This document shows positions 8,095 through 21,742 of a stretch of 49,484 bases of DNA, one piece after another (position 1 is the first letter of the stretch; every line of letters begins with the position of its first letter). Under the pieces are notes generated by a model. It had not been told where the DNA came from. It saw only the letters and a program-made list of their open reading frames with translations, and did no database searches. The position numbers and the translations under genes were made by a program. This DNA is from a virus: positions 1 to 49,484 of IMG/VR virus record IMGVR_UViG_3300035156_000182. The stretch is one strand, 5' to 3'.

Positions 8095-8598
8095 ATGCTG
8101 ACCATCGAACAACAAACCGCGAACCTTTCGACCGTCGTCGACAATCTGCTGCGCAACGCCCTTCCGCGTGCCGGCAGCGTTCACGCGGCTGTCGCCTATA
8201 TCGCGCACGTCGCGACGCCAGCCGTCGGCGGCGGTATTCTCGCGCTGCCCGCGCCGAGCGGCCAGCGCGCGCGGCACCGGGGCGTCGCGATCATGGTCGA
8301 CGACAGCGGCTATTTCGCCGAGGCCGGTGCCGCAACGTCATTCGGCTATGCCGACACGGTCGACGAAATCCGCGCCGAGATTGACGACCATTTCGCCGAG
8401 GAAGCCGAGCACTATCGCGACCAGGATACGCCCGCCGATACGCCGTCGCTCGACGACACGTTTGCCGAGCTGGAGCGCGCCGACGACACCCCGACGGCCT
8501 CGCGCTGCCCCCGGTGCGGCATCACGATCCTGCGCGCGTCGGGCAGCGGCCCCGACTGCGCGAGCTGCGCGCGTCGCTATCTCGGCACGAATTCTTAA
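8095..8598 (+). CDS. Hypothetical protein with an acidic region and a C-terminal CxxC..CxxC zinc ribbon
   Basis: 167 aa with GGAG 8 nt upstream. It has an acidic stretch, DEIRAEIDDHFAEEAEHYRDQDTPADTPSLDDTFAELERADD, followed by CPRCG..x12..CASC. Confidence 0.6.
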   Translation: MLTIEQQTANLSTVVDNLLRNALPRAGSVHAAVAYIAHVATPAVGGGILALPAPSGQRARHRGVAIMVDDSGYFAEAGAATSFGYADTVDEIRAEIDDHFAEEAEHYRDQDTPADTPSLDDTFAELERADDTPTASRCPRCGITILRASGSGPDCASCARRYLGTNS

Positions 8599-8640
8599 CC
8601 CTCGGCGGGCATGGTGCCCGTCGAACTGGAGCGCATCACG

Positions 8641-8826
8641 ATGACGAAAATTCACAATTGGAAGGCGAAGCGGTCGGGCGACGCGATCACGGTCACGGGC
8701 ACCGACCCCGACGGCCACCCGCTGAAGGTCGGCCGCGTGCTGTCGATTGACGGGGGCGCGACCGGCATCATCGCAAAACAGTGTAACGGCCTGCGCGCAC
8801 CGACCTTTTTCGAGCTGGTCGCATGA
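8641..8826 (+). CDS. Hypothetical protein
   Basis: 61 aa from ATG 8641 with GGAG 10 nt upstream. The track start at 8611 has no RBS. ATGA coupling to the next gene. Confidence 0.5.
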   Translation: MTKIHNWKAKRSGDAITVTGTDPDGHPLKVGRVLSIDGGATGIIAKQCNGLRAPTFFELVA

Positions 8827-9086
8827 GTCGCCTGTCCGACAGCATCCGCGAACAGGCGCGGCGGCAGGCCACTATCGCCAGCGGCCTGCGCATGGCGGGC
8901 GACCGCGACCTTGCGCAGCACGCGGCGATTGCCGGGCACTACCTGACCACGGCCGCCGACACGCTCGACGCATACGATCGCGCCGCCAAGCTCGCCGCGT
9001 CGGGGCCATTCGAAGGTTCCGACCTGAACGCGGCAGCTCGCGCGAACGGCGGCCTGACCGTGGTCAGTCTCGGCGCGCGTGCCTGA
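8823..9086 (+). CDS. Hypothetical protein
   Basis: 87-aa ORF with an ATGA overlap onto the upstream gene. Helical, Ala-rich. Confidence 0.55.
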   Translation: MSRLSDSIREQARRQATIASGLRMAGDRDLAQHAAIAGHYLTTAADTLDAYDRAAKLAASGPFEGSDLNAAARANGGLTVVSLGARA

Positions 9087-9252
9087 CTATCGTTACCGCC
9101 TGCCGTCGACCTATGGCCGCAACGTGTTTCGCTTGCTGCCCTTCGGCCCGAACATCATCGCCCGCGCCGCTCGCGCGGGCGTTGACACGACCAGCACCCC
9201 GGCCATCCGCGCGTGGCGCGCTGCCGGCGAACCCGAGGAATGGAACCCATGA
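9079..9252 (+). CDS. Small hypothetical protein (57 aa, below the ORF-track cutoff)
   Basis: My translation from GTG 9079: VPDYRYRLPSTYGRNVFRLLPFGPNIIARAARAGVDTTSTPAIRAWRAAGEPEEWNP. It overlaps both neighbours (8-nt and ATGA) and fills an otherwise 160-bp gap. Confidence 0.4.
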   Translation: MPDYRYRLPSTYGRNVFRLLPFGPNIIARAARAGVDTTSTPAIRAWRAAGEPEEWNP

Positions 9253-9557
9253 AAGAATTCACGCGCGTGTTCGTTCGCGACAGCGGCGTCGGCATTGACG
9301 TCGGTTTCACCATCACGCCGGGCACGCCCGAAACCGGCTGGAGCGGCCCCCCTGAAAATTACGATTGCGGGTCGCCTGCCGAAGTCGACGTGACTGCTGT
9401 CAACGGGTGCCGGCTGGCCGCGCGCGACCTGACCGATGCCGAGCGCGAGCGGTTCGCCGCCGAAGTGCTCGACGACGTCGGCGAATATCTCGACGACGGC
9501 CCCGACCCCGACGACGCGCGCGACCGGATGCGCGACGACCGCCTGACCGACCGATGA
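9249..9557 (+). CDS. Hypothetical acidic protein
   Basis: 102 aa from ATG 9249 (MKEFTRVF..) with a GAGGAA RBS. Acidic C-terminus DDVGEYLDDGPDPDDARDRMRDD. Confidence 0.55.
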   Translation: MKEFTRVFVRDSGVGIDVGFTITPGTPETGWSGPPENYDCGSPAEVDVTAVNGCRLAARDLTDAERERFAAEVLDDVGEYLDDGPDPDDARDRMRDDRLTDR

Positions 9558-9760
9558 AACCCGACGACGGGCACGACGCGCACCGCGTCGAGGCGCGCAA
9601 GCGGTGGGGCAACCTGACCGCCTTTCGCCTCGGCTATGTTGCCGGCGAAAACGGTCAGGTCGAGCCGAACCCCTACCTGACCGACCGGGGCCGCCGGCAG
9701 TATCTGGCCGGCGTTGCCTATGGTCGGGAACGCGCGCGAGCCGCGCGGCCCGGCGGTTGA
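9554..9760 (+). CDS. Hypothetical protein
   Basis: 68 aa (MKPDDGHDAHRVEARKRWGNLTAFRLGY..) with an ATGA overlap. In frame with the 3' part of track ORF 9365..9760. Confidence 0.5.
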   Translation: MKPDDGHDAHRVEARKRWGNLTAFRLGYVAGENGQVEPNPYLTDRGRRQYLAGVAYGRERARAARPGG

Positions 9761-9762
9761 CC

Positions 9763-9966
9763 ATGGCCGCCGCCCCTGCCCTGCGCACCCTGCGCGATTG
9801 CGGGTGCGTGCGTGCCCGCGTCGATCGCCTCGACTTCGTGTCGCTGGTCGACATCGGGCTTGCCACCGCACGCCCCGTCGCACGCGACCCCGACCTGACC
9901 GACTATCGGCTGACCGAAATCGGTTGGCGCGTATCCGAAAGGCTTGCCCCATGCGCTTCATCGTGA
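9763..9966 (+). CDS. Hypothetical protein
   Basis: 67 aa (MAAAPALRTLRDCGCVRARVDRLDFVSLVDIG..). It starts 2 nt after the upstream stop. Confidence 0.45.
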   Translation: MAAAPALRTLRDCGCVRARVDRLDFVSLVDIGLATARPVARDPDLTDYRLTEIGWRVSERLAPCASS

Positions 9967-10157
9967 CGACTCACACCGCCTTGCCGGGGGTGCGCCTGTC
10001 GCGCCCCGGCCACTTCGGCAACCTGCCGTTCGACAACGTGCCCGAGGCCGAGGCGCACGCGCGCGCGATCGCCGGCAGCGCTGACATCACGGTCGACCAG
10101 GAACACGCCCGGCCGCGCTCTTTCATCGTTGACAGGCTGGCCAACCCCGGCGCATGA
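9951..10157 (+). CDS. Hypothetical protein
   Basis: 68 aa (MRFIVTTHTALPGVRLSRPGHFGNLPF..) with GAAAGG upstream and a 16-nt overlap with the previous ORF. Confidence 0.45.
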   Translation: MRFIVTTHTALPGVRLSRPGHFGNLPFDNVPEAEAHARAIAGSADITVDQEHARPRSFIVDRLANPGA

Positions 10158-10187
10158 ATTCGGCGTCACCGAATAAGGAACACGCGC

Positions 10188-10355
10188 ATGAACGACTATC
10201 GTAACCGCCCCCCGGTCGATGAACACGCCGACAATCTCGAAGCCGCTTTCGACAGCCTGCGACGCGCCGAGGCATGGAGCTTCGCCGGGCTGGTCGTGCT
10301 GGTGGCAATCTGCGCGATCGGCATGGCCGTGGCGTTCGGGCTGGTGCGCTGGTGA
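10188..10355 (+). CDS. Small membrane protein (55 aa, below the ORF-track cutoff)
   Basis: My translation: MNDYRNRPPVDEHADNLEAAFDSLRRAEAWSFAGLVVLVAICAIGMAVAFGLVRW. AAGGAA lies 7 nt upstream and there is one C-terminal TM helix. Confidence 0.45.
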   Translation: MNDYRNRPPVDEHADNLEAAFDSLRRAEAWSFAGLVVLVAICAIGMAVAFGLVRW

Positions 10356-10594
10356 AGTGCCGCCGCGCCCTGCCGGGTAGCGTGCTCGCCGACGGGTCGG
10401 TGATTGACCATCGCGGCTTGCGGTCGCCGCACGGCCCTTGCTTCATGCCGGCCAACTATGGCGCGCGCCTGCGCCACGTTCTCGGCCGCTGCCGCGCGCT
10501 GGAGCTGGCCGGCTGGCGAATGGCACCCGTTCGCGATTGGCCGAGCATGGCACCGCGCGCCGGGCTGTTGTGCATCGTTCGGCGTCGGGCATGA
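10352..10594 (+). CDS. Hypothetical Cys-containing protein
   Basis: 80 aa from GTG 10352 (GTGA overlap with the upstream stop). In frame with track ORF 10274..10594. Confidence 0.4.
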   Translation: MKCRRALPGSVLADGSVIDHRGLRSPHGPCFMPANYGARLRHVLGRCRALELAGWRMAPVRDWPSMAPRAGLLCIVRRRA

Positions 10595-10854
10595 CTGAAA
10601 TGCTTCTGGCCGCGCGTCGGTGCGGCCAGTGCCTGACCACCCGCAACCGCATCGTGTCGGGCGCGCGAGCGGCCGAGCTGGTGCGCCATTGCCGCGAATC
10701 GGGCACCCATTTTCAATGTCACAAGGGGTCGATCGCCGACCTGAACGTGCATTGCCGGGGAGTGCATGACCTGTTCGGGTCGGGCGCGCACCGCGTCGCC
10801 GTGCGGTTCGGCATCCCCGTGCGTGAAGTCGACCCCGACCAGCTCGGCGCATGA
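10591..10854 (+). CDS. Hypothetical Cys/His-rich (zinc-binding-like) protein
   Basis: 87 aa with an ATGA overlap. Pattern: RRCGQCLTT..HCRESGTHFQCHKG..VHCRGVH. Confidence 0.55.
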   Translation: MTEMLLAARRCGQCLTTRNRIVSGARAAELVRHCRESGTHFQCHKGSIADLNVHCRGVHDLFGSGAHRVAVRFGIPVREVDPDQLGA

Positions 10855-11405
10855 AGGTCGAAATTTACACCGACGCCAGCGTGACCACGACCAAGCGCGG
10901 CGCATGGGCGACCGTCATCGTGCGCGGCGACGATCGGCACGAATCGTCGGGTGCCCTGCGCGGCGACTTCCCGTCGTCGACCGCCGTCGAGGCCGCCGCC
11001 ATGGCCAACGCGATGCACTTCGCCCGCCAGCGCGGGTTGATTGAACCCGGCGACGTCGTGACGCTGCGATCGGACAATCGGAACGCCGTCGGCCGCGTCA
11101 CCGGCCGGGCGCGCGACGCGAAGTGCCCGACGATCCGCCGCGCGATTTCCTACGTGCTCGACGAAGCCGATCGCCACGGGTTCGACCTGCGCGCGGCATG
11201 GGTGAAGGGGCACCAGCCGCTAGACAGCTTCGACCCGCACGCAATCCATAATATCCGGTGCGACCACCTTTGCCGCGCGATCCGCGACGGCCACAAGCCG
11301 GCGGGCATCAACGCCCTTGTCGAACAGGTGGCGGGCCGGCAGCGGCGACGGCGGCGGCGCGAGGCGCACGCGGCGGGTACGCGATCAGCGGCAGCGGCCG
11401 AGTGA
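10851..11405 (+). CDS. Ribonuclease H (RNase HI-like)
   Basis: 184 aa. The catalytic pattern aligns by eye to E. coli RNase HI: VEIYTDAS (D), STAVEAAAMANA (E), TLRSDN (D), WVKGH (H), IRCDHL (D). It has an Arg-rich tail, RQRRRRRRE. Confidence 0.8.
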   Translation: MKVEIYTDASVTTTKRGAWATVIVRGDDRHESSGALRGDFPSSTAVEAAAMANAMHFARQRGLIEPGDVVTLRSDNRNAVGRVTGRARDAKCPTIRRAISYVLDEADRHGFDLRAAWVKGHQPLDSFDPHAIHNIRCDHLCRAIRDGHKPAGINALVEQVAGRQRRRRRREAHAAGTRSAAAAE

Positions 11406-11620
11406 CCGACGACCTGTTCGCCGCGCCGATCGTCGGGCCGGTGGCGTCGTTCGCCTGCGAGTGCGGCGCGCGTGACGAAGTGAAGGAACCCGCGCCGCCG
11501 ACGGTCGACTGTTTCGGCTGTCGGCAGGTTCAGGGGATGAAGCGCTTTTCGCCGCGCTGGCCGCCGCCCCGCCACGCCGGGCGCACGGCCACGGCGCGCG
11601 AGCTGGCGCGGGTGGTCTAG
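11402..11620 (+). CDS. Hypothetical small zinc-ribbon-like protein
   Basis: 72 aa from GTG 11402 (GTGA overlap). Motif CECG..x17..CFGC. Its stop overlaps the stop of the convergent minus-strand gene. Confidence 0.4.
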   Translation: MTDDLFAAPIVGPVASFACECGARDEVKEPAPPTVDCFGCRQVQGMKRFSPRWPPPRHAGRTATARELARVV

Positions 11621-11862
11621 TCGAGCACCGCGACGAACGTCACCATGCCGCGCGTGGTGTCGCTCTTTGCCGCTTCGGTGACCGTGGCAGGCTTGCCGTC
11701 GACCGTGCCGGCAGCGCCGACCATGTCGCGCACCAGCGTGCCGAAAAATGCGAGCCGGATGCCGGCCGCGCCCTGCTGCGCGCCCGCGTTGCCCTTGTGA
11801 AACGGGAAGTCGACGTTGGCCAGCCAACCGTTTTCGACCGAACCTTCAACCATGCGTGCCAT
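11617..11862 (-). CDS. Hypothetical protein
   Basis: 81 aa from ATG 11862 (MARMVEGSVENGWLANVDFPFHKGN..) with an AAGGGG RBS. The track ORF starts further upstream at 11919. Confidence 0.5.
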   Translation of the reverse strand: MARMVEGSVENGWLANVDFPFHKGNAGAQQGAAGIRLAFFGTLVRDMVGAAGTVDGKPATVTEAAKSDTTRGMVTFVAVLD

Positions 11863-11922
11863 CGTGTCGCCCCTTCGAAGTGATGCCCGCCGCCATATCC
11901 CAGGCGGCGGGCTGGTCATAGG

Positions 11923-13932
11923 TCAGGGCTTGGCGATCGCGTCGAGCACCGCGCGCCGCTTCGGCGTCTCGGCGATCGGCTGGCCGGCATATTCCCGAAT
12001 TCCCCACGCGCCATATTGCGAGATTGTGCCGGTCGCCGAGTAGATGGTCAGCAGGTCGCCAATGTCGCGCCGCCATTCTGCGATGAAGCGGTCGTATGCC
12101 GCACCCATCAACGGCGACCGTTGCATCGCCTCGGCCACCGGGGCCAAGCCGCCGGGGGCGATGATATGTTGCCCGGCTTCATACGTGATGTACCGCTTGC
12201 CGAAGCGGTCGGCCGTCCGCTTGTTCGCCTTCGCGCGCGCCAACGTTTCAACGCGTTGCGCCTCCAGGCGGGTGAACAGCGCCGGCAGGTCGGCGACCGT
12301 CACCTTGTCGTTCGGCGCGTCGAAAAACGAGTGTCCGAAGTAGGGCGCGGTGGCGAACGCGTCGTGCCATTTGGCCGCGTCGCGGAACCCTAGAACCTGT
12401 TCGCCCGCCCATGGATTGTCGTTCTGCGCGGAAATGACCCGCACCAGCCGCGCGGGGTTGCTGGCAAAAACCGGGGTCAGCACCTGCATCATTTCGGTCG
12501 ACTTTTCGGCCAGCCGCAACAGGTTGTTCGTGTATTTGTCCGGCGACAGCTTCGACGCCACGCCTTCGTTCAGCGCCTGCGCTGCCACACCGAATTGGAA
12601 ATTCCACACTTCGTTGGACAGCTCAAAATAGGCGCGGTGGTTGGCCGCAAGGCGGTCGCGCACCAGCTCGCCAGCCCGGCGAACATAGTCGGCGTCGGCA
12701 TTCCACGGGATAGTGAACCACGCGTCGGTGCCGGCCGCGTTCGCAAGGTCGATCATGTTTTCGAGCGCGACGCCGTCGGTGCCCCCGGTGGTCGGGGTGG
12801 CGCGGTTCGCCCATGTCACCGACGGCGGGTTGCCGTTGGCACTCGACCAATCCAGGAAGCGCAGCAGAGCGAACGGCTTCAGGTCGTCGATCAGCCGCTT
12901 GTCGAACACGCCGACCGTCTCGAGTCCCGCTTCGCGGCAATCCAGGTTGCGGAACGGGTCGACGTCATTCGCGCCCTGAACGTAGAGCATAAGCGACGGC
13001 CTCGACGCGCCCAGCTTGGCGATGTCGAACCCGCGCCAAGTGAAGGTCACCGACCCCTTGTCGCCGAATCCGCCAGCGTCGCCATCGACGCGGATGGCTC
13101 CGGCCCCCTGCCAAGTGCACGTCACGACCGCCGGGCGGTTGCTCCATACGGCTTGCGGCACGTTGATCGGCAGCACGCCGTCGGTGCGCGGGTAGCCGAA
13201 CGCGTTCAGCTTGCCGGGCACCATGTCGCCCCACCCGGCCGACGGGTCGCGCCATGCGCTCGCCGCATAGGCAAGGTTCGCGAAGGTCCGTTCGGTGTTG
13301 TAATACACCGACCCGCCGACGTTGATCGCGATGCTGGTCGGCTTCACCCCGGCGGTCGGCGCGGGGGTGGGCGTCGGTGCCGGGGTGGGGGCGGGGGTCG
13401 GGGCTGGCGTCGGGGTGGTCGGCAGCGGGGCGGTGCGCGACCATGCGCAGGCCTTTACGACGTTCGACAGCGGGTCGCCGAACGCTTCGTTGCTACAGTC
13501 GATGCCGTCGGTCGCGAGGCGATAGGCGAACACGCCCTGCGCGCCATAGCGAACGGTCGCGGTGCCGGTGAACGAACAGCGGGCATCCTCGACCGCGCAT
13601 TCGGTCCAACCGCCGACCGCGGGTGGCGTCGGGGTGGGCGTCGGCACGGGTGCCGGGGTTGGGGTCGGCGTAGGGGCTGGTGCGGGCGCGGGCGTGGCGA
13701 TCGCCTTCAGACGTTCGCGGCGCACCTGTTCGGCGGCCGAGGCCGAACCCTTCGCCTTGCCGAAGCAATCGGCTTGCGTGGTCAGGCGCGACGGGCTGTT
13801 CAGGTCGGCTTTCGGGATGGCGGCCGTGCCGCATCCGGCGGTGGTTTGTGCGGTGGTCGGGCTGGTCAGTCCGGCGACGGCGGCAGCGGTGCCGGCGGCG
13901 GCCAGCAGGCCGAAAATGTAGCGTTGGCGCAT
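11923..13932 (-). CDS. Secreted glycoside hydrolase-like protein (Sec signal peptide, two Pro/Thr linkers, 4-Cys module, clan GH-A-like TIM-barrel domain)
   Basis: 669 aa with an AGGAG RBS. Signal peptide MRQRYIFGLLAAAGTAAAVAGLTSPTTAQ. Linkers such as PAPAPAPTPTPTPAPVPTPTPTP. Cys module WTECAVEDARCSF..VRYGAQG..IDCSNEAFGDP..KACAW. Catalytic-type motif YFELSNEVWNFQF (Asn-Glu) after RFLDWSSANG. The family cannot be assigned by eye. Confidence 0.6.
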   Translation of the reverse strand: MRQRYIFGLLAAAGTAAAVAGLTSPTTAQTTAGCGTAAIPKADLNSPSRLTTQADCFGKAKGSASAAEQVRRERLKAIATPAPAPAPTPTPTPAPVPTPTPTPPAVGGWTECAVEDARCSFTGTATVRYGAQGVFAYRLATDGIDCSNEAFGDPLSNVVKACAWSRTAPLPTTPTPAPTPAPTPAPTPTPAPTAGVKPTSIAINVGGSVYYNTERTFANLAYAASAWRDPSAGWGDMVPGKLNAFGYPRTDGVLPINVPQAVWSNRPAVVTCTWQGAGAIRVDGDAGGFGDKGSVTFTWRGFDIAKLGASRPSLMLYVQGANDVDPFRNLDCREAGLETVGVFDKRLIDDLKPFALLRFLDWSSANGNPPSVTWANRATPTTGGTDGVALENMIDLANAAGTDAWFTIPWNADADYVRRAGELVRDRLAANHRAYFELSNEVWNFQFGVAAQALNEGVASKLSPDKYTNNLLRLAEKSTEMMQVLTPVFASNPARLVRVISAQNDNPWAGEQVLGFRDAAKWHDAFATAPYFGHSFFDAPNDKVTVADLPALFTRLEAQRVETLARAKANKRTADRFGKRYITYEAGQHIIAPGGLAPVAEAMQRSPLMGAAYDRFIAEWRRDIGDLLTIYSATGTISQYGAWGIREYAGQPIAETPKRRAVLDAIAKP

Positions 13933-13944
13933 GGGTGGAAGCTC

Positions 13945-14331
13945 CTATTGGTGCTGGTATTCGAGCGTGAACGTGCGTTGTTTCACGCGCGGCGGCACGG
14001 CGTCGGTCGTGATGGTCACGACGATGCCGATTAACTTCGGGGTGTCGAACAGCGGCGACTCCTTCATCGCGTCGACAATTTCAGGCCAGAATGACACGCG
14101 ACGACCGACCAGGGTCGGCAGCGAATAGCCATTGCCGGATTTGATCGCGAAACCGAGCGCTACGGATTCGGGAAGCGGGGCCATGTTGAACGACGCCACG
14201 TTTTCGCCCGGCGCGAGGATCGGAAACGGCGCGACCCCCTGAACGCCCTGCGAAATGTCGAGGCCGAACAGGTCGACGTCGCTCGGGTCTAGCGGCTGGT
14301 CGAGCTTAAGGGCTGTCGTCGGAATGACCAT
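13945..14331 (-). CDS. Hypothetical protein
   Basis: 128 aa from ATG 14331 (MVIPTTALKLDQPLDPSDVDLFGLD..), with GAGG 9 nt upstream. It lies between the SPRY-repeat gene and the hydrolase gene. Confidence 0.55.
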   Translation of the reverse strand: MVIPTTALKLDQPLDPSDVDLFGLDISQGVQGVAPFPILAPGENVASFNMAPLPESVALGFAIKSGNGYSLPTLVGRRVSFWPEIVDAMKESPLFDTPKLIGIVVTITTDAVPPRVKQRTFTLEYQHQ

Positions 14332-14342
14332 GGTCGGCGGCC

Positions 14343-16127
14343 TCAATACAGGGTTGCGGTGCGCGCCCCGGTGTCATGCCATGTAATAGAGCGCGCGCCC
14401 GCATCGTAAAGCGTTGCGAACTTCGCGCCTTGGTCGACCAGCTCGACCGTGTTCGTGTCGGGGGCGCGCAACAGCGGCAGGGTGGGGAAGTCGGCGGCCT
14501 CCAGGATGATCGCCGTCGCGCGCACGCGGGCCAGCGCCGAGCTGGTCGCCACGTCGTCGCCCTCGGCGATCGTCGCATCGGCGAACACGCGCGGGGCGGC
14601 GGTCGATGCCATCGCATCGGCGGCCTCGGCGATCGCGCCCGTCGCGATGATCCGAACCGCGCCCGAGCTGGTCGAGCTGTCGCCGGCCTCGGCTTGCGAC
14701 AGGAAGCCGAACACGAACGCGCGGCCATCGCTCGCCGTGGTGTCGGGGGCCTCGACCAGCGGTGCGGTGCCCGTCACCCCGCCAGTGCTGGCCGATGCGA
14801 TCGCGTCGGGGGCTTCGGTCAGGGCCGCCGCGCCGGTAATGCGCAGGGCGGCGGTCGACGTCGCCGCGTCGTCGGCTTCGGCCAGGGCGGCGGCAGCGGT
14901 CGCGCGTGCGATCGCCGTGGCGGTCAGGCTGTCGGGTGCTTCGGCGGTGCTCGCGCTCGCGACGACCCGCACGCTGCCGCTCGACGTGGTCGTGTCGGCG
15001 GCCTCGACCGTGGCGGCATTGCCCGCGACGCGCAGGGTGCCTGTCGCGGTCGGGGTGTCGGCCCCTTCGAACAGGTTCGCCACCGCCCCGGCGGCCGGCG
15101 CGCTGCCCTGCGATGCCATGGTGTCGGGCAGCTCGGCCGCGACCGACGCGGCGGTGATACGCGCAACGGCGGTCGAGCTGGCGACGTCGGCCGCTTCGGT
15201 GACGGTGGCGGTGCCCTTGGCGATCGCCTTGACGGTCGCGGTGGTCGTGTCGGCACCCTCGACGACCGCGCCCGCGCCCACCACCTTGCCAGCACCAGCC
15301 GACGCCATCGTGTCGGCAGCTTCCGCGACGGTCGACAGGGCGGTCATGCGCGCCGCCCCTGTCGAGGCGATCGCATCCGCACCCTCGACTAGCGCCGCGT
15401 TCGCCGTGCGCCCGGTAGGCGTCGCGGCATCCATCGTCGAATAGCCGGTCGGCGGCGGGTATGCGTGCCCTGCCGCGCCGTGGTTGATCGTGATTGGACC
15501 GCCACCAATCGACAGGTAGGCGGCGAACGCGAAGGAAGGCGTCGGCCCGGTTCGGGGCAGAGTCCAACCGCCAGTGACGGTGAGAGGATTGCCGTACCAC
15601 GGCCCGGCATTGACAGCGACGAAGCACATGCCGGTGGCGACGTCGATCGCCAGCCGGATGATGTCGTTCGCGGCCCAAGTGGGGCCGAACGTGTCGTAGC
15701 CGCTGGAGTCGTCGCCTAGCGCGCCGTTCGGATATGAACCGAACCCGTTGTTCGATTGGCCGAGGTAACCGGGGTTCAGCGGCGACTCTAGCTGGTTGAC
15801 CACGCCGACCGCGATTTGCGTGCCGCCCCCCGTGCTCACCCGCATTTCGGCGTACCACTTGCCCGTGGATTTGAACGGCGAAACGGCGACCGCGTAGCTG
15901 CCGCCGGTGCCGACGAACGTCAGCGTGCGGTTCTGATTTGACAGCGCGAACGGCGGTTGCGCGGTCAGCGCCGGGTCGAACCCGACCGGCGTCGAAACCG
16001 CACCGGAAACGACCCCGGTCGATGCTACGCCGTCGGGGCCTTCGACAAGGTTCGCGATGTTGGTCGCTGCCGTGCCGAGCGGGTTGCCGGCGACGGGTCC
16101 GAATGCGACCGGACCCCGGCCGGGCAT
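14343..16127 (-). CDS. SPRY-domain protein with about 15 tandem 21-aa xE[AG]xD repeats (fibre-like structural protein candidate)
   Basis: 594 aa. The SPRY pattern spans aa ~55-225 (STGKWYAEMRV..IAVGVV..NDIIRLAIDVATGMCFVAVNAGPW). Periodic repeats then run from aa ~244-560, with one more copy (LVEGPDGVASTG) before the SPRY domain. Confidence 0.7.
   Translation of the reverse strand: MPGRGPVAFGPVAGNPLGTAATNIANLVEGPDGVASTGVVSGAVSTPVGFDPALTAQPPFALSNQNRTLTFVGTGGSYAVAVSPFKSTGKWYAEMRVSTGGGTQIAVGVVNQLESPLNPGYLGQSNNGFGSYPNGALGDDSSGYDTFGPTWAANDIIRLAIDVATGMCFVAVNAGPWYGNPLTVTGGWTLPRTGPTPSFAFAAYLSIGGGPITINHGAAGHAYPPPTGYSTMDAATPTGRTANAALVEGADAIASTGAARMTALSTVAEAADTMASAGAGKVVGAGAVVEGADTTTATVKAIAKGTATVTEAADVASSTAVARITAASVAAELPDTMASQGSAPAAGAVANLFEGADTPTATGTLRVAGNAATVEAADTTTSSGSVRVVASASTAEAPDSLTATAIARATAAAALAEADDAATSTAALRITGAAALTEAPDAIASASTGGVTGTAPLVEAPDTTASDGRAFVFGFLSQAEAGDSSTSSGAVRIIATGAIAEAADAMASTAAPRVFADATIAEGDDVATSSALARVRATAIILEAADFPTLPLLRAPDTNTVELVDQGAKFATLYDAGARSITWHDTGARTATLY
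14448..15398 (-). repeat. Degenerate 63-bp (21-codon) tandem repeat array inside the SPRY-protein gene
   Basis: Protein units: VEGADAIASTGAARMTALST / AEAADTMASAGAGKVVGAGAV / VEGADTTTATVKAIAKGTAT / TEAADVASSTAVARITAASV / ... / AEGDDVATSSALARVRATAII. The Glu-x-x-Asp register recurs every 21 aa. Confidence 0.7.
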
Positions 16128-16130
16128 GGT

Positions 16131-16877
16131 CTAGCGGACCCGCTGAACGGCGAACGCCGCCGAGTTGATCGGCCCGAAGCTGCCGCCGTTGTCGTAATAA
16201 ACGAACGCGCGAAGCTGCTGCCCGGCGGTCAGCGGCATAAGGCGGCTGTTATACGACCCGCTGCGGTTCGGTGCGGTGACTGACCACTGAAAGCCGGGCG
16301 AATCGGCGTTGACGATGTCGATACCCAGCCCGTGACTGATTCCCGCCCCCGGCCCGCCGCCCTGTGGATCGGCGACGCGAACCTTAAGCTGGCAGTCATA
16401 GAGGCCGGTCTGCTGCACCGTATATTCGTTGCGGTTGACCTTGTTCCATCCGCCGTGCGTGTCGGTAGTTGCGGGCCAAGCATTGCCGCCGTTGTTGTTG
16501 TCCCAAGCGACAGTCAGGAAGGCGTTGTTGGTGTTGTAGAACGGGTTGGCGTCGGGGTTGTTGCGCTCGACCACGAGCACCGGCCAATCCGCTACATGCG
16601 CCTTCGCGAGATAGGCGACCGACACCGTGGCCGACGTCGTGACGTTCAACAGCGCGCCGGTCGAGCTGGCGGCCAGCCCCCGGCTAAGGGTGCCCCCGGC
16701 GGTGTAGTTGCCGGTGCCCGTTTCCCATGCGTTGCCGTCGATGATGAGATATTCGACCGCCGTCACGCCGGTTGTCCACACGCTGTTGAACGTGCGGTAA
16801 CCCGGCAGGGCCGCGCCGAGCGTCAGCGCTCCGGTGCCGCCCCCGGCGACGGCCTGCATGACGCGGTCAGCGATCAT
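16131..16877 (-). CDS. Tail-fibre-like protein (possible C1q/TNF-like jelly-roll tip)
   Basis: 248 aa from ATG 16877 (MIADRVMQAVAGGGTGALTLG..) with an ATGA overlap onto the upstream gene. The C-terminus YTVQQTGLYDCQLKVRV...RLMPLTAGQQLRAFVYYDNG is reminiscent of C1q-type receptor-binding tips. This is a weak, by-eye call. Confidence 0.5.
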   Translation of the reverse strand: MIADRVMQAVAGGGTGALTLGAALPGYRTFNSVWTTGVTAVEYLIIDGNAWETGTGNYTAGGTLSRGLAASSTGALLNVTTSATVSVAYLAKAHVADWPVLVVERNNPDANPFYNTNNAFLTVAWDNNNGGNAWPATTDTHGGWNKVNRNEYTVQQTGLYDCQLKVRVADPQGGGPGAGISHGLGIDIVNADSPGFQWSVTAPNRSGSYNSRLMPLTAGQQLRAFVYYDNGGSFGPINSAAFAVQRVR

Positions 16878-17158
16878 TCGTCGATGCCTTGTGAAAGGTC
16901 GGTCAGCCGATTCCACTGGTCAATGGAGGGCCGCCAGCCGTCGAGGTTCAGCCGCATTTCAAACAGCGACAGGGCGGCGGCATCGGGGGCCGACAGGGTG
17001 AATTCCCGCGCCTCGGCGATCATACGCACGGCCTCGGCCCGGTTCAGCGGTTCGGACAGGTCGACCCCGTTGGCCGCGCCGCGCAGCGCATCCATGTCGG
17101 CCGGACGCGGCGCACCCGGCGGGCGCGGGCGCATCGGCTTTCGGGGGGCGATCGCCAC
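16874..17158 (-). CDS. Hypothetical protein
   Basis: 94-aa ORF with a GTG start at 17158, 4 nt after the upstream stop. Coupled to the fibre-like gene. Confidence 0.5.
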   Translation of the reverse strand: MAIAPRKPMRPRPPGAPRPADMDALRGAANGVDLSEPLNRAEAVRMIAEAREFTLSAPDAAALSLFEMRLNLDGWRPSIDQWNRLTDLSQGIDE

Positions 17159-17162
17159 GGGC

Positions 17163-17570
17163 TTACGCGTTCGCAGCGGTGATGCTGAACGTCGAAATGA
17201 GAATGTTCTGACCTGCCGCCGCGTTGGTGTTGTCGAGCGTCATGTCACCGCCGCCGCCGGTGGCCGTGACGGTGCCCTGCATATGACAGGTCGTGCCGTC
17301 GCTGGCGTAGATGCGGAAATGGCCGACGACGCCGGCCGCGTCCGCGCTGGTGTCCTCCCAGGTTCCCGACTTCGCCTTCGATCCGGCGGCAGCGGCGGCC
17401 ATCCAATCGGCGGGCAGCGCGATGGTCGCGACCACGGTTCCGGTGTCGGCCGCTGCGCAGCTCGCCGGGGCCGCGCCGGTGCGGAGCTTCAGAACCGCCG
17501 ACACGCCGATCGCGACTTCGATGGCATCTAGGCGAGCGTTACGAACGGCGACGGATTGCTGAAGTGCCAT
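17163..17570 (-). CDS. Hypothetical protein (first gene of the fibre-like module)
   Basis: 135 aa with ATG 17570 and an AGGGA RBS. Preceded by a 126-bp non-coding gap. Confidence 0.55.
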   Translation of the reverse strand: MALQQSVAVRNARLDAIEVAIGVSAVLKLRTGAAPASCAAADTGTVVATIALPADWMAAAAAGSKAKSGTWEDTSADAAGVVGHFRIYASDGTTCHMQGTVTATGGGGDMTLDNTNAAAGQNILISTFSITAANA

Positions 17571-17696
17571 TGTCGGGGGTTCCCTGTTTCGTGCTGACCG
17601 CCGACCAATAGCGAAAGCGGCGCGCGCAATCCATCGCGTTGACGATCGCGGGGCCGGCCGTGCTAAAGGGCGGCGGGGGCGACGGCTGGAGTTGGC

Positions 17697-17945
17697 ATGA
17701 CAGAACGCACGGAAACGCTCGACGACGCGGTCGCGGCAGCGCGCAGTCGCTGGCGGTTTATCGCGATCGGCTTGGCCTTGGTCGGCGCGACGAATATCGC
17801 GAACACGTTCCTACACGTTCGCGAGCGCGACGGCGCGGCGGTCGAGCCGGTCATTTGCATTGCTGCGATAAACGACCCAGCTCTAGCGAAATATGCGGTC
17901 GAAAAGCGTGGTGACCGCCAGGGCGGCGGTTTCAAGCGACCATAG
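17697..17945 (+). CDS. Possible small membrane protein (uncertain)
   Basis: 82 aa with GGAG 6 nt before the ATG and one TM (WRFIAIGLALVGATNIANTFL). Its 3' end overlaps the Mu F-like gene by 63 nt on the opposite strand, so it is uncertain. Confidence 0.3.
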   Translation: MTERTETLDDAVAAARSRWRFIAIGLALVGATNIANTFLHVRERDGAAVEPVICIAAINDPALAKYAVEKRGDRQGGGFKRP

Positions 17946-19597: not shown

Positions 19598-21742
19598 TCA
19601 TTCGATCCCGGCAGCAGTCGTCGCACGCTCGGCCGCCAGTGGCAACGCCAGCGCGCGCCCCAGGTCAGCGGTCGGGAACTGTTCGAACGCCTGAAGCATC
19701 GCGACGCGGAATTCGGCCGGGGTCAACGGGCGGCCTGCCGCTTCGAATTCGGCCACCTTGTCGACCATCGCAGCACCCATCGCCGCGAACAGCGGGTCGG
19801 TGTTGTTCACCAGCTCGGCGGTCAGGGCGTCGATGCGGTCGAGCTGGTCAGCGCTGAAGGTCGGCGCAACCATGCCGTGAAGCGGGTCGGTTTTCAGCGC
19901 TTCCCATATTTCGGGGCCGAACTTCAGGGCGTCGATGAACGGGTCGACGTTGGCGAAGTCGACCGTTTGCGGCCCCTTGGCGAAGGTGACGTGCGCCCGG
20001 TATTCCGACCAATCGTGCGACGCACCGGCCTCGACCAGCCCTTCGTGACGCCAATCGAATGACCGATGCTTGAACATAAGCACCGTCGAATCGCTGCCGA
20101 ACGTCTCGACGACACGGGGGCCGCCGGCCTCGACGGTAACGGTGCCATCCTCGTTTGACCCCCATTCGCTCGGCATATCGAACCAATCGACGGCGTTGCG
20201 GCTATGGCAAAGCGTGACGTGCAAGTCGGCCGCGTCGACCAGCCCGGTGAACCCCTGACTGCGCGCCCATTTCAACAGCTCGCCGCCGTTCAGCAGTTTG
20301 CGCGAGATATACAGGGGGCGCGGGTCGCCGGCCGCGAACACGGCGACACGCTGGTCGGCCGGATTGTCGTTCGCGGCAGCGCCACGGGCACCCCCCATTC
20401 GGGGGGCAAGGGCCGGCGGGGGCGGCGGTGGCGGGGCCTTTTCGTAGCCGTCGCCATAGGTTTCGCGAAAGCTGTCGTCGGTGCGGTTCCAGCCGAGTGC
20501 CTTCAGCTTCGTGTCGCGCTCGGCCGTGGTGTTCGTGTCTTCGGCTTCGTCGAACTGGCGGTACACCAGGGGCGCGGCGACGTCGGGGCCATGGTTCCAC
20601 ATGGTCAACCACACCGGGGCGGTGCGGTTGAACGACTCGTGAAATTCGTCGCTGTCGGCCGTGACGATCGTCGCCGCCACGCCTTCGTGCACCGACGCTT
20701 GGTTGCCGTTCAGCCCGTCCGCTGCCGCGCGCGACGTGCCGGGCTGGCCGATGATGACCCCGCGCAGCGCATCGTTCATTTCGCCGATGAATTCGGGGTA
20801 ACCGTCCGCGCCGCCGGTGCGGGTCGCTTCGATGAAGTGCGGGCGAAGGTCGGGGCCGCCGCCGGTGACGTCGGTCGGGGGCGACGGCAGGGCGACCGCG
20901 CTGTCACGGCCGAGCGCTTGCGCGGCCTCCAGCGTTTCGGCGATGACCTTGGCGTCGCTGCCCGGCGGGAAGTAGGCGACCGCCGTCGGCTGGCCGTATT
21001 TCTCCAGGTACAGCGCCCAAAACTGCATGACGTTGCGCTTGAACCAAATCGGCCAGTAGCACCAATGCGCGAGGCCGGTGCCGTAGTGCTGGAAATCGTG
21101 CGTGCCGCCGCTGCGGTACGTCCAAAAACGGTTGGTCGGCACCGGCACGCCGTCGGAGTCTTGCGGGGCTTTCATCCGCAATTCGCCTTCGTTGGTGAAG
21201 GCGAACCAATTGCGGTCGGGCACCACGACGTCGCGCAACCACACGATCGTGCGGCCATTGTGCTGGCGCATTTCGAACAGGAATTCGCCGATGGCGTAGC
21301 CGTACCACCGGCCATAGAACATTAGCTTGGTGACGCGATCCCACCCGACCGCCTTCATCATGTCGCGCAGGTCGTCTGCCGCCTGAACCGACCGGGGGTC
21401 GTCGGGGTTGCCCGGCTCGACAATCCATGGGGCCTTGGTCAGCGCAAGTTGCCGCTGCGAAAACGCCGTTTCGGCGACATCGTCGTCGAGTAGGGCATTG
21501 AACAGCTTCAGGTCGCGTTGACCCTCGCGCTGGAGCGTCGAGTCTTCGTTGACGGCGAGCTGCGAAAGCCATGCCGCGCCGAGGGCGAACCCGTCATAGG
21601 CGCGGGTGAACATGCCCCCGCTGGTGTCGGGCGCGGTGCCGTCGGTGGGCGACGCCTGCCGAAGCGGGTCGGCTCGCTGCTGGCGCGCGAGGCTTTCGCG
21701 AAGGCCGCGACCAAGGCGATAATCGGTGGGCGAAAGTGCCAT
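19598..21742 (-). CDS. Portal protein (DUF935 / Mu gp29-like) with an embedded 2H-phosphoesterase-like domain
   Basis: 714 aa, directly after TerL (TAGATG junction). DUF935-like core: WYGYAIGEF..FWTYRSGG..YGTGLAHWCYWPIWFKRNVMQFWALYLEKYGQPTAVAYF. After a poly-Pro linker, aa ~470-620 carry two H-x-T-x motifs (LHVTLCHS at 508, AHVTFAKG at 584). Confidence 0.8.
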   Translation of the reverse strand: MALSPTDYRLGRGLRESLARQQRADPLRQASPTDGTAPDTSGGMFTRAYDGFALGAAWLSQLAVNEDSTLQREGQRDLKLFNALLDDDVAETAFSQRQLALTKAPWIVEPGNPDDPRSVQAADDLRDMMKAVGWDRVTKLMFYGRWYGYAIGEFLFEMRQHNGRTIVWLRDVVVPDRNWFAFTNEGELRMKAPQDSDGVPVPTNRFWTYRSGGTHDFQHYGTGLAHWCYWPIWFKRNVMQFWALYLEKYGQPTAVAYFPPGSDAKVIAETLEAAQALGRDSAVALPSPPTDVTGGGPDLRPHFIEATRTGGADGYPEFIGEMNDALRGVIIGQPGTSRAAADGLNGNQASVHEGVAATIVTADSDEFHESFNRTAPVWLTMWNHGPDVAAPLVYRQFDEAEDTNTTAERDTKLKALGWNRTDDSFRETYGDGYEKAPPPPPPPALAPRMGGARGAAANDNPADQRVAVFAAGDPRPLYISRKLLNGGELLKWARSQGFTGLVDAADLHVTLCHSRNAVDWFDMPSEWGSNEDGTVTVEAGGPRVVETFGSDSTVLMFKHRSFDWRHEGLVEAGASHDWSEYRAHVTFAKGPQTVDFANVDPFIDALKFGPEIWEALKTDPLHGMVAPTFSADQLDRIDALTAELVNNTDPLFAAMGAAMVDKVAEFEAAGRPLTPAEFRVAMLQAFEQFPTADLGRALALPLAAERATTAAGIE

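Follow-up and report, generated by a model that had tools for sequence, protein, structure and literature searches.

A predicted accessory-fibre protein joining a SPRY domain to a 21-residue repeat array, and its genetic linkage to garland-family proteins, in a siphovirus-like phage

Garland proteins are small dimers associated with the shafts and tips of phage fibres (PMC12796354; PMC10811340). Sonani et al. described two proteins of Agrobacterium phage Milano, gp125 and gp127, as dimers that form garlands and fold like T4 gp8 and A511 gp105; connectors of the gp8/gp105 type line up as beads on a string, each dimer being crossed by an extended chain of another protein (PMC10811340). For Agrobacterium phage 7-7-1, structure 9RKV provides a tail-fibre model (PMC12796354). 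Phage tail fibres and other virion components also carry LamG3 and SPRY lectin domains of the concanavalin fold (Iyer et al. 2021, PMC7824862). Here we analyze a gene of the virus record IMGVR_UViG_3300035156_000182, a phage genome or prophage whose 49,484 nucleotides we call the window, that joins a SPRY domain to a tandem array of 21-residue repeats marked by an E-x-x-D motif and belongs to a five-gene cassette headed by a distant homologue of the garland proteins.

Compared with the corresponding genes of Milano (gp125, gp126, gp127) and 7-7-1 (gp014, gp013, gp012), the locus shows both likeness and difference. A garland homologue is the first gene of the window's cassette, and in both Agrobacterium phages the garland block is contiguous with fibre or receptor-binding-protein genes, in 7-7-1 inside the packaging/head region. 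However, these phages are myoviruses whereas the window is siphovirus-like, their fibres lack 21-residue E-x-x-D arrays, and the window's garland-family protein, of 135 amino acids (aa), is just 28% identical to 7-7-1 gp012, its binding to the array being a prediction. Weighing sequence, structure models and these analogies, we give somewhat better than an even chance to the proposal that the gene encodes a subunit of an accessory virion fibre, acting as a receptor-binding protein or adhesin, in a siphovirus-like phage of an alphaproteobacterium; such a fibre would most likely belong to the tail-fibre network. In this proposal the repeat array would form an elongated shaft, either a beta-solenoid or, if the protein is trimeric, a triple beta-helix, and dimers of the 135-aa protein would bind it as garland proteins bind tail-fibre shafts and tips. 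The SPRY domain would supply ligand binding, and the invariant N-terminal peptide, the Arg-strand C-terminal tail or both would serve as the anchor on the virion or on partner proteins. The parts of the open reading frame (ORF), all on the minus strand, are as follows.

14343..16127, minus strand: complete ORF of the SPRY and 21-residue-repeat protein (ORF list, GC content at third codon positions, full-length orthologue)
16077..16127, minus strand: N-terminal peptide, aa 1-17, MPGRGPVAFGPVAGNPL (same residues in the orthologue by pairwise alignment)
15993..16055, minus strand: isolated repeat unit 0, aa ~25-45, beginning ANLVEGPDGVASTG (repeat profile, 8.4 bits; kept in the orthologue)
15420..15986, minus strand: SPRY domain, aa ~48-236 (relatives, profile against PDB, AlphaFold2, Foldseek)
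14451..15395, minus strand: array of 15 tandem 21-residue E-x-x-D units, aa 245-559 (autocorrelation, register, phrog_38872)
14346..14450, minus strand: Arg-rich C-terminal tail, aa 560-594 (direct reading, alignment of relatives, orthologue)

The 21-residue repeat and its family

The ORF list gives a complete frame of 594 aa with an ATG start, whose GC content at third codon positions (GC3) of 0.85 is typical of coding frames here, in a window of 67% GC. A second virus record, IMGVR_UViG_3300035156_000134 (L003), encodes a full-length orthologue of 619 aa, about 52-53% identical, in which residues 1-17 are the same and the insertions and deletions comprise whole codons and whole repeat units. 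Since several long ORFs overlap on both strands, including an antisense ORF of 331 aa over the repeat array (14449-15444, plus strand; GC3 0.89), one could ask whether the open frame and its periodicity stem from high-GC composition and not from a gene. This explanation is effectively refuted by the confident SPRY fold, by the orthologue with its whole-codon and whole-unit indels, by hundreds of relatives, and by operon-like packing among conserved neighbours; the antisense ORF is in all likelihood not a gene but a by-product of the composition of this high-GC, periodic stretch. An earlier sequence-only reading of the window had noted an ORF combining SPRY with tandem 21-residue repeats, an observation that we confirm; what it made of that observation is supported in part, as described below.

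Periodicity was assessed by BLOSUM62 autocorrelation of aa 236-570 against shuffles. Lag 21 gave z=13.9 and lags 42 and 63 gave z=9.0 each, while every other lag stayed at z<=1.8. Fifteen units run in register through aa 245-559, with spacings of 21 (four times), 22 (once) and 21 (nine times). One unit is 22 aa long, with a single extra residue where unit 5 meets unit 6, so that the 21-residue period is nearly but not strictly kept; of the about 15 strictly 21-residue units read earlier, the number and register hold and the strictness does not. The single copy upstream, LVEGPDGVASTG (aa 27-38), proved real though weak: it scores 8.4 bits against the repeat profile, it is kept in the L003 orthologue as NLAEGADVCVATA, and it occupies the position of the first unit of many family members (Glu at residue 22-39).

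The 63-bp DNA repeats that had been described are present in very degenerate form, with a lag-63 identity of 0.51 against 0.38 +/- 0.014 at other in-frame lags. The units are on average 52% identical (maximum 71%) with a longest exact common word of 14 nucleotides, and Tandem Repeats Finder reported no 63-bp array, which together rule out a recent or recombinogenic DNA repeat. It had also been proposed that recombination between repeats tunes fibre length. At the DNA level this finds no support, because units so diverged in nucleotides offer frequent recombination no substrate; however, copy number does differ, L003 having 16 units against 15 through exactly one additional 21-residue block, and family members ranging from 5 to 33 units among the matches listed. 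Thus, unit number changes over evolutionary time.

In the full-length AlphaFold2 model, each unit contributes three short strands (columns 9-12, 16-20 and 3-4) and the E-x-x-D motif lies in a turn. The predicted local distance difference test score (pLDDT) is 60-73 in units 7-14 and ~33 in units 1-6; the array modelled by itself is all-beta at a pLDDT of 45, which made that model unusable for a fold search. The model is compatible with a solenoid of one rung per unit, an intertwined trimeric beta-helix, or a segment that folds only on a partner. The earlier proposal of a beta-solenoid or fibre shaft thus agrees with the all-beta prediction, the three strands per unit and the better-scored units, but a solenoid is not established, because half of the array is at a pLDDT of ~33 and the repeat-only model at 45.

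Among classical fibre shafts, the triple beta-spiral of adenovirus and reovirus has a 15-residue repeat, and triple beta-helices of the T4 gp5/gp12 type have about 8 residues per face. The query resembles such shafts in its short repeats of alternating small and hydrophobic residues with Gly turns and in its association with a globular binding domain, and 21 residues would correspond to three faces of ~7. It differs from them in period and in having no sequence match in PDB, and an internal 7-residue, three-face periodicity was ruled out (lag 7, z=-1.2; lag 14, z=0). The invariant Glu/Asp pair, for which metal or sugar coordination had been suggested earlier, could serve in metal binding, turn capping or partner contact.

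Profile comparison places the query in phrog_38872 (PHROGs v4, no function assigned), a large and uncharacterised family of phage proteins, which matches aa 410-546 with a weak score (E=4.1e-5) and is matched by 48 of 70 family members, the best at E=3.6e-31. This entry is unannotated, defines no repeat unit and says nothing on structure or function, and no Pfam family covers the 21-residue repeat. From nine proteins we derived the consensus unit A-A-L-x-E-A-x-D-T-L-S-A-T-G-T-V-x-I-T-A-T, with invariant Glu(5) and Asp(8), four conserved hydrophobic positions and several positions for small residues. The E-x-x-D spacing is exactly 21 in 97 of 120 cases in the nine closest proteins, and the repeat recurs in more than 100 viral proteins, so that the register is kept in homologues.

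The eight closest proteins (P0002-P0009) resemble the query in the repeat region only and differ in their N-terminal domains, one of them carrying LamG_3 (PF13385) there. To follow the repeat further, IMG/VR was scanned for five in-phase E-x-x-D codon motifs at 63-nucleotide spacing, which matched at least 119 contigs. About 105 of the matches listed proved to be true in-frame arrays, their composition rich in Ala, Thr, Ser, Gly and Val, in proteins of ~190-2,600 aa. The same array is placed behind varied N-terminal modules (SPRY-like segments, LamG and Gly-rich domains), and in many of these proteins it begins at residue ~22-39 with no globular N-terminal domain. A scan of bacterial genomes with a six-unit pattern was unspecific: about 10 of 120 matches are genuine family members, nearly all in Alphaproteobacteria, and a broad taxonomic spread of the repeat was dropped as a conclusion on this ground. 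A three-unit profile returned three short irrelevant matches from an index of 5.8 billion proteins, where word-based preselection fails on a low-complexity query; tblastn of the query against GenBank phages gave no match, and a literature search for a 21-residue phage fibre repeat found nothing.

The ends of the protein also recur in the family. The C-terminal tail consists of three mini-strands of ~10 residues with the pattern G-[AST]-R-x-x-T/hydrophobic (GAKFATLYDA, GARSITWHDT, GARTATLY). The L003 protein likewise ends in three Arg-containing mini-strands of this length, and analogous tails align in eight of nine relatives as well as in this orthologue. Similar beta-strand-like mini-repeats (GARSITW, GRWTITS, RARTLTV, APRIIEW) form the C-terminus of most close relatives (P0002-P0009 and L003:8001-9860). 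Other family members carry Trp-repeat or acidic-plus-LLLL tails instead, and because the tail types differ, alternative anchoring modules are suggested. In P0006 (L001:10001-11590), a segment that is PASTA-like by eye replaces the Arg-strand tail; this gene comes from a P22-like podovirus, where it has head-completion genes on one side and a gp10-like gene on the other. At the other end, the invariant aa 1-17 are a candidate attachment segment, and Gly/Ala/Pro-rich N-termini similar to that of the query occur in other family members.

Linkage to garland-family proteins and the predicted fibre

In loci that were chosen solely for carrying the repeat, the repeat gene has a near-constant companion, represented in the window by the first gene of the cassette.

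17163..17570, minus strand: 135-aa garland-family protein, first cassette gene (phrog_3758, E=4.5e-30; PDB profile matches)

The linkage is polar and near-obligate. A gene of this family lies upstream on the same strand of 42 of the 50 repeat genes with at least 3 kb of flanking sequence and of 38 of the 41 with at least 4 kb; overall, such genes were seen 67 times upstream, twice downstream and never on the opposite strand (all among the matches listed). The genuine bacterial-genome matches give the same picture, with eight upstream and none elsewhere, as do the loci of P0006 and P0009. In the window it sits 1.0 kb upstream of the repeat gene, with two genes between.

No Pfam or NCBIfam family includes the 135-aa protein, which also lacks an informative name, and a PDB search with the single sequence gave nothing useful. 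A profile built from 42 diverse family members, however, matched 44nx_B (147 aa, "Structural protein") at E=3.4e-16 and 9rkv_A at E=4e-7. The latter chain has 141 aa and corresponds to gp014, which in the tail-fibre model of 7-7-1 is the garland protein. Against the proteins of 7-7-1, the same profile matched gp012 (E=2e-21) and gp014 (E=2e-11), and gp012 shares 86% identity with gp127, a garland protein of Milano. At the level of sequence profiles, the 135-aa protein is therefore a distant homologue of the 7-7-1 and Milano garland proteins. We also considered whether 7-7-1 gp013 carries a bona fide unit of the repeat, which was rejected because its profile score is not significant. The earlier suggestion of a virion fibre thus agrees with the surrounding phage genes and with the linkage to a family in which solved members bind tail fibres.

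Another way to read this linkage is that the shaft is not a fold of its own: each unit would be an extended docking segment laid on one 135-aa dimer, giving a hetero-polymer whose length would follow from how many units there are. Precedents for such beads on a string are A511 gp105 and Milano gp125/gp127 (PMC10811340). We regard this as unlikely. It would account for the near-obligate, polar linkage of the two genes, for the strong conservation and great abundance of the partner (8000 of 8000 scored metagenomic candidates at E<=1e-5; top clusters of 135 aa and 72-82% identical), for the way in which the period and the Glu/Asp positions are kept while the rest of the unit drifts, and for the low AlphaFold2 confidence of the array alone. 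Yet the conserved hydrophobic and small positions, with three strands per unit at a pLDDT of 60-73, fit a self-folding solenoid, and garland-family genes also accompany non-repeat proteins. The fuller form of this idea is improbable to the same degree: the 21-residue unit would be a docking module for garland dimers in a modular hetero-polymeric filament, its length determined by 5-33 units (among the matches listed) and its tip by swappable SPRY, LamG or Gly-rich domains.

Whether the fibre we favour belongs to the tail or to the head is a question on which gene order bears. In ~100 viral loci among the matches listed, the module mostly has terminase and portal genes upstream and protease, scaffold and major head protein genes downstream, and because this bulk annotation shows portal upstream and protease/capsid downstream, the arrangement in the window is the common one. 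The main rival explanation builds on this pattern: the protein would be a capsid fibre or head decoration, similar to the fibres on flagellotropic phage capsids, and the 135-aa protein would lie close to the capsid or coat the fibre. The window's cassette indeed has MuF on one side and the protease and capsid genes on the other, phrog_3758 is classed by PHROGs under "head and packaging", and the capsid-fibre proteins of related alphaproteobacterial phages are not yet assigned (PMC12796354). However, the sole solved relative of the partner family with a known role sits on the baseplate and tail fibres. Moreover, 7-7-1 carries its proven tail-fibre genes and its garland genes within the packaging/head block, between the genes of the small and large terminase subunits, so position is not diagnostic. 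In Caulobacter phage Seuss, Pseudanabaena phage Pan4 and the P0009 locus, the partner-led cassette adjoins tail or lysis genes (in P0009 the repeat gene is the last large gene before the lysis cassette), while the P0006 locus is a P22-like head-completion/gp10 region. Finally, 7-7-1 has capsid fibres, and no run of three or more units was found in its genome, which led us to reject the array as a component of the 7-7-1 capsid fibre. For these reasons, namely the 7-7-1 gene order, the placement in Seuss, Pan4 and P0009, and the lack of an array in 7-7-1, a role in the tail-fibre network is favoured, and the capsid alternative appears doubtful.

Several points weigh against the accessory fibre as proposed here. 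The position of the module, taken by itself, suggests a head role. The array is modelled at low confidence and may not fold on its own, and a profile of the repeat found no match among PDB chains. The similarity of the window's 135-aa protein to 7-7-1 gp012 is modest (BLASTP, E=6e-5). In addition, garland-family genes stand beside proteins that lack this repeat, namely 7-7-1 gp011, Seuss gp36 and Pan4 gp26, the last with 20-residue repeats, so that the garland partnership is not specific to the E-x-x-D unit.

The Pan4 locus (Pan4_24-27) follows the same cassette logic, with a 133-aa garland-family gene, genes for proteins of ~300 aa and ~600 aa, the latter with repeats, and a gene for one of ~100 aa. 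Its garland-family protein is 61% identical to the 135-aa protein of the window. Pan4 gp26 (630 aa, L012:8337-10229) shares the layout of the query, with an N-terminal globular/Gly-rich domain, ~14 beta repeats rich in Ala, Gly, Ser and Thr, and a C-terminal Arg/Trp strand tail. It differs in a period of 20 (half-period 10), a G.VRV.G motif, the lack of E-x-x-D and the lack of BLAST similarity to the query. A literature search on phage Pan4 found nothing useful.

The host range of phages is determined by receptor-binding fibres, which are also the most frequent targets of engineering. What stands out at this locus is the repeat family with its garland partnership: a widespread unnamed repeat that neither Pfam nor any solved structure covers, a modular design in which one array is combined with interchangeable lectin-type heads (SPRY, LamG and others), and a near-obligate genetic partner from a family that cryo-electron microscopy has revealed only recently. 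If the partnership is physical, garland proteins gain a general role beyond two Agrobacterium myoviruses, and the way in which a large class of accessory fibres is assembled could be tested directly. If the units are docking modules, they would represent a previously undescribed and widespread phage route to accessory fibres.

The SPRY domain

The 594-aa protein carries a SPRY domain, confirmed solely at the level of profile and fold. The assignment depends on this evidence because direct scans were empty: the Pfam scan found no family at E<=1 for the whole query or for aa 1-245, with the PF00622 gathering score not reached; the NCBIfam scan of the query found none; and phmmer against PDB gave weak matches to the SPRY domains of RyR and RanBP10. 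An exhaustive search with aa 1-245, in contrast, collected 296 relatives at E<=1e-3, and PF00622 was matched by 48 of the 60 aligned, the best at E=2.7e-19. A profile of their alignment matched RanBP10/9 SPRY structures in PDB at E=4e-26, followed by DDX1, TRIM9/67, SPSB3, Ash2L and RyR. AlphaFold2 modelled aa ~50-235 at a pLDDT of 75-96 as a bent beta-sandwich, the SPRY fold, and in a Foldseek search of PDB with this model the top 50 matches were all SPRY/B30.2, with target-normalised template modelling scores of up to 0.81 and a probability of 1.00. Thus, the SPRY call made from GKWYAEM and other motifs, all of them present in the sequence, was right, and the profile search proposed as its check found the domain.

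Its presence in a phage is less unusual than the emphasis on eukaryotic receptors had implied, since SPRY is annotated in many phage proteins and is discussed in the literature. In BFVD many phage proteins are named B30.2/SPRY, one of them a "tail fiber protein" of Burkholderia phage AH2. This protein (I6NSG7) and B30.2/SPRY proteins of Sphingomonas phage MMDA13 and Ralstonia phage RSL2 share the fold at Foldseek E values of 1e-9 to 1e-7, but are ~20% identical, and their fibre annotations are mostly by similarity. The concanavalin fold extends the likeness, as close relatives of the repeat protein use LamG_3 in place of SPRY. The SPRY part is therefore ordinary and not new for phages.

The domain sits near the N-terminus between unit 0 and unit 1 and was apparently inserted there, since the arrays of many relatives begin where the isolated unit of the query sits (residue ~22-39). 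Comparison with L003 shows the N-terminal/SPRY part to be the best conserved (83.7% identity), against 37.1% in the repeats and 25.7% in the C-terminal tail. The sequence-only reading had taken SPRY as the binding head; because SPRY is N-terminal and conserved while the repeats and tail diverge, the polarity may be reversed. By inspection, two genes on unrelated viral contigs (L024:3355-5613 and L047:9201-11330) encode an extra N-terminal domain, a SPRY-like segment and a 21-residue array in the same order, so the SPRY-plus-array combination recurs. A garland-family gene lies directly upstream of each.

The cassette and its genomic surroundings

Three further genes complete the cassette.

16874..17158, minus strand: 94-aa protein (41% identity to the L003 counterpart)
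16131..16916, minus strand: 261-aa protein, probable second fibre-type protein (L003 248-aa protein 90% identical)
13945..14346, minus strand: 133-aa protein, its start overlapping the 594-aa ORF at the stop codon (29% identity to the L003 125-aa protein in the same position)

In the order 135, 94, 261, 594 and 133 aa, the five proteins are 80, 41, 90, 52 and 29% identical to those of L003, and the cassette is translationally compact. The 261-aa protein has a weak match to phrog_35360 (tail-fiber, E=4e-4), and its true start is probably at residue 14; tblastn against GenBank phages gave no match, and a PDB sequence search nothing useful. Its N-terminus shows a weak likeness to Seuss gp35, and it is far better conserved than the adjoining repeat protein. 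For the 94-aa protein no family was found in the library scans made. The 133-aa protein has no family or PDB match; it could be a chaperone or accessory protein.

In L003 the cassette lies directly upstream of a different terminase, with a homologue of a 669-aa protein on the opposite side. Since it is kept at a different genomic position, the cassette is portable. In the window, the minus-strand order is large terminase, Mu-type portal with a C-terminal Acb1 domain, MuF and then the cassette, followed by the gene of the 669-aa signal-peptide protein and a 100-aa ORF, a few plus-strand genes, the protease, the major head protein, adaptors and tail genes; genes for large tail proteins lie at the other end of the window. 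Rhizobium phage RHph_TM3_3_3, the nearest annotated relative by capsid, has an uninterrupted block of terminase, portal, morphogenesis, protease and capsid genes. The ~9.6 kb between MuF and the head protease of the window (~8277-17883) are missing from it.

These features raise another explanation, in which the cassette is non-structural cargo (a moron) carried in the head module and its SPRY domain binds a host or phage protein inside the cell or at its surface, for example in exclusion or anti-defence. The SPRY domains of eukaryotes are chiefly protein-binding modules, the ~9.6-kb segment missing from the relative carries plus-strand genes and a signal-peptide protein, the position of the cassette differs between backbones, and the same phage fuses the anti-CBASS (cyclic-oligonucleotide-based anti-phage signalling system) enzyme Acb1 to its portal. 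However, the linkage to a family with solved virion members, the location of relatives inside structural operons, tightly packed on the same strand, and the combination of a globular lectin-type domain with a long periodic beta repeat, which is typical fibre architecture, all argue against cargo. By inspection, moreover, no signal peptide or transmembrane segment was seen in the 594-aa protein. We therefore judge this explanation very unlikely, and retain the accessory virion fibre as the preferred one.

Other genes of the region add minor observations. The ~9.6-kb segment contains, besides the fibre cassette and the secreted protein, plus-strand genes that include an RNase H-like ORF (10851-11405). 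The 669-aa protein (11923-13932, minus strand) has an N-terminal segment resembling a signal peptide, two Pro/Thr-rich linkers and a C-terminal domain of ~450 aa that found no family match, with nothing useful from a PDB sequence search; its L003 homologue is very close (E=2.5e-272). The portal (19598-21742, minus strand) is of the Mu type (PF06074, E=1e-71), and its C-terminal Acb1 domain (PF23474, E=3e-28, aa 476-619), an anti-CBASS phosphodiesterase by sequence, suggests an anti-defence enzyme fused to a virion protein.

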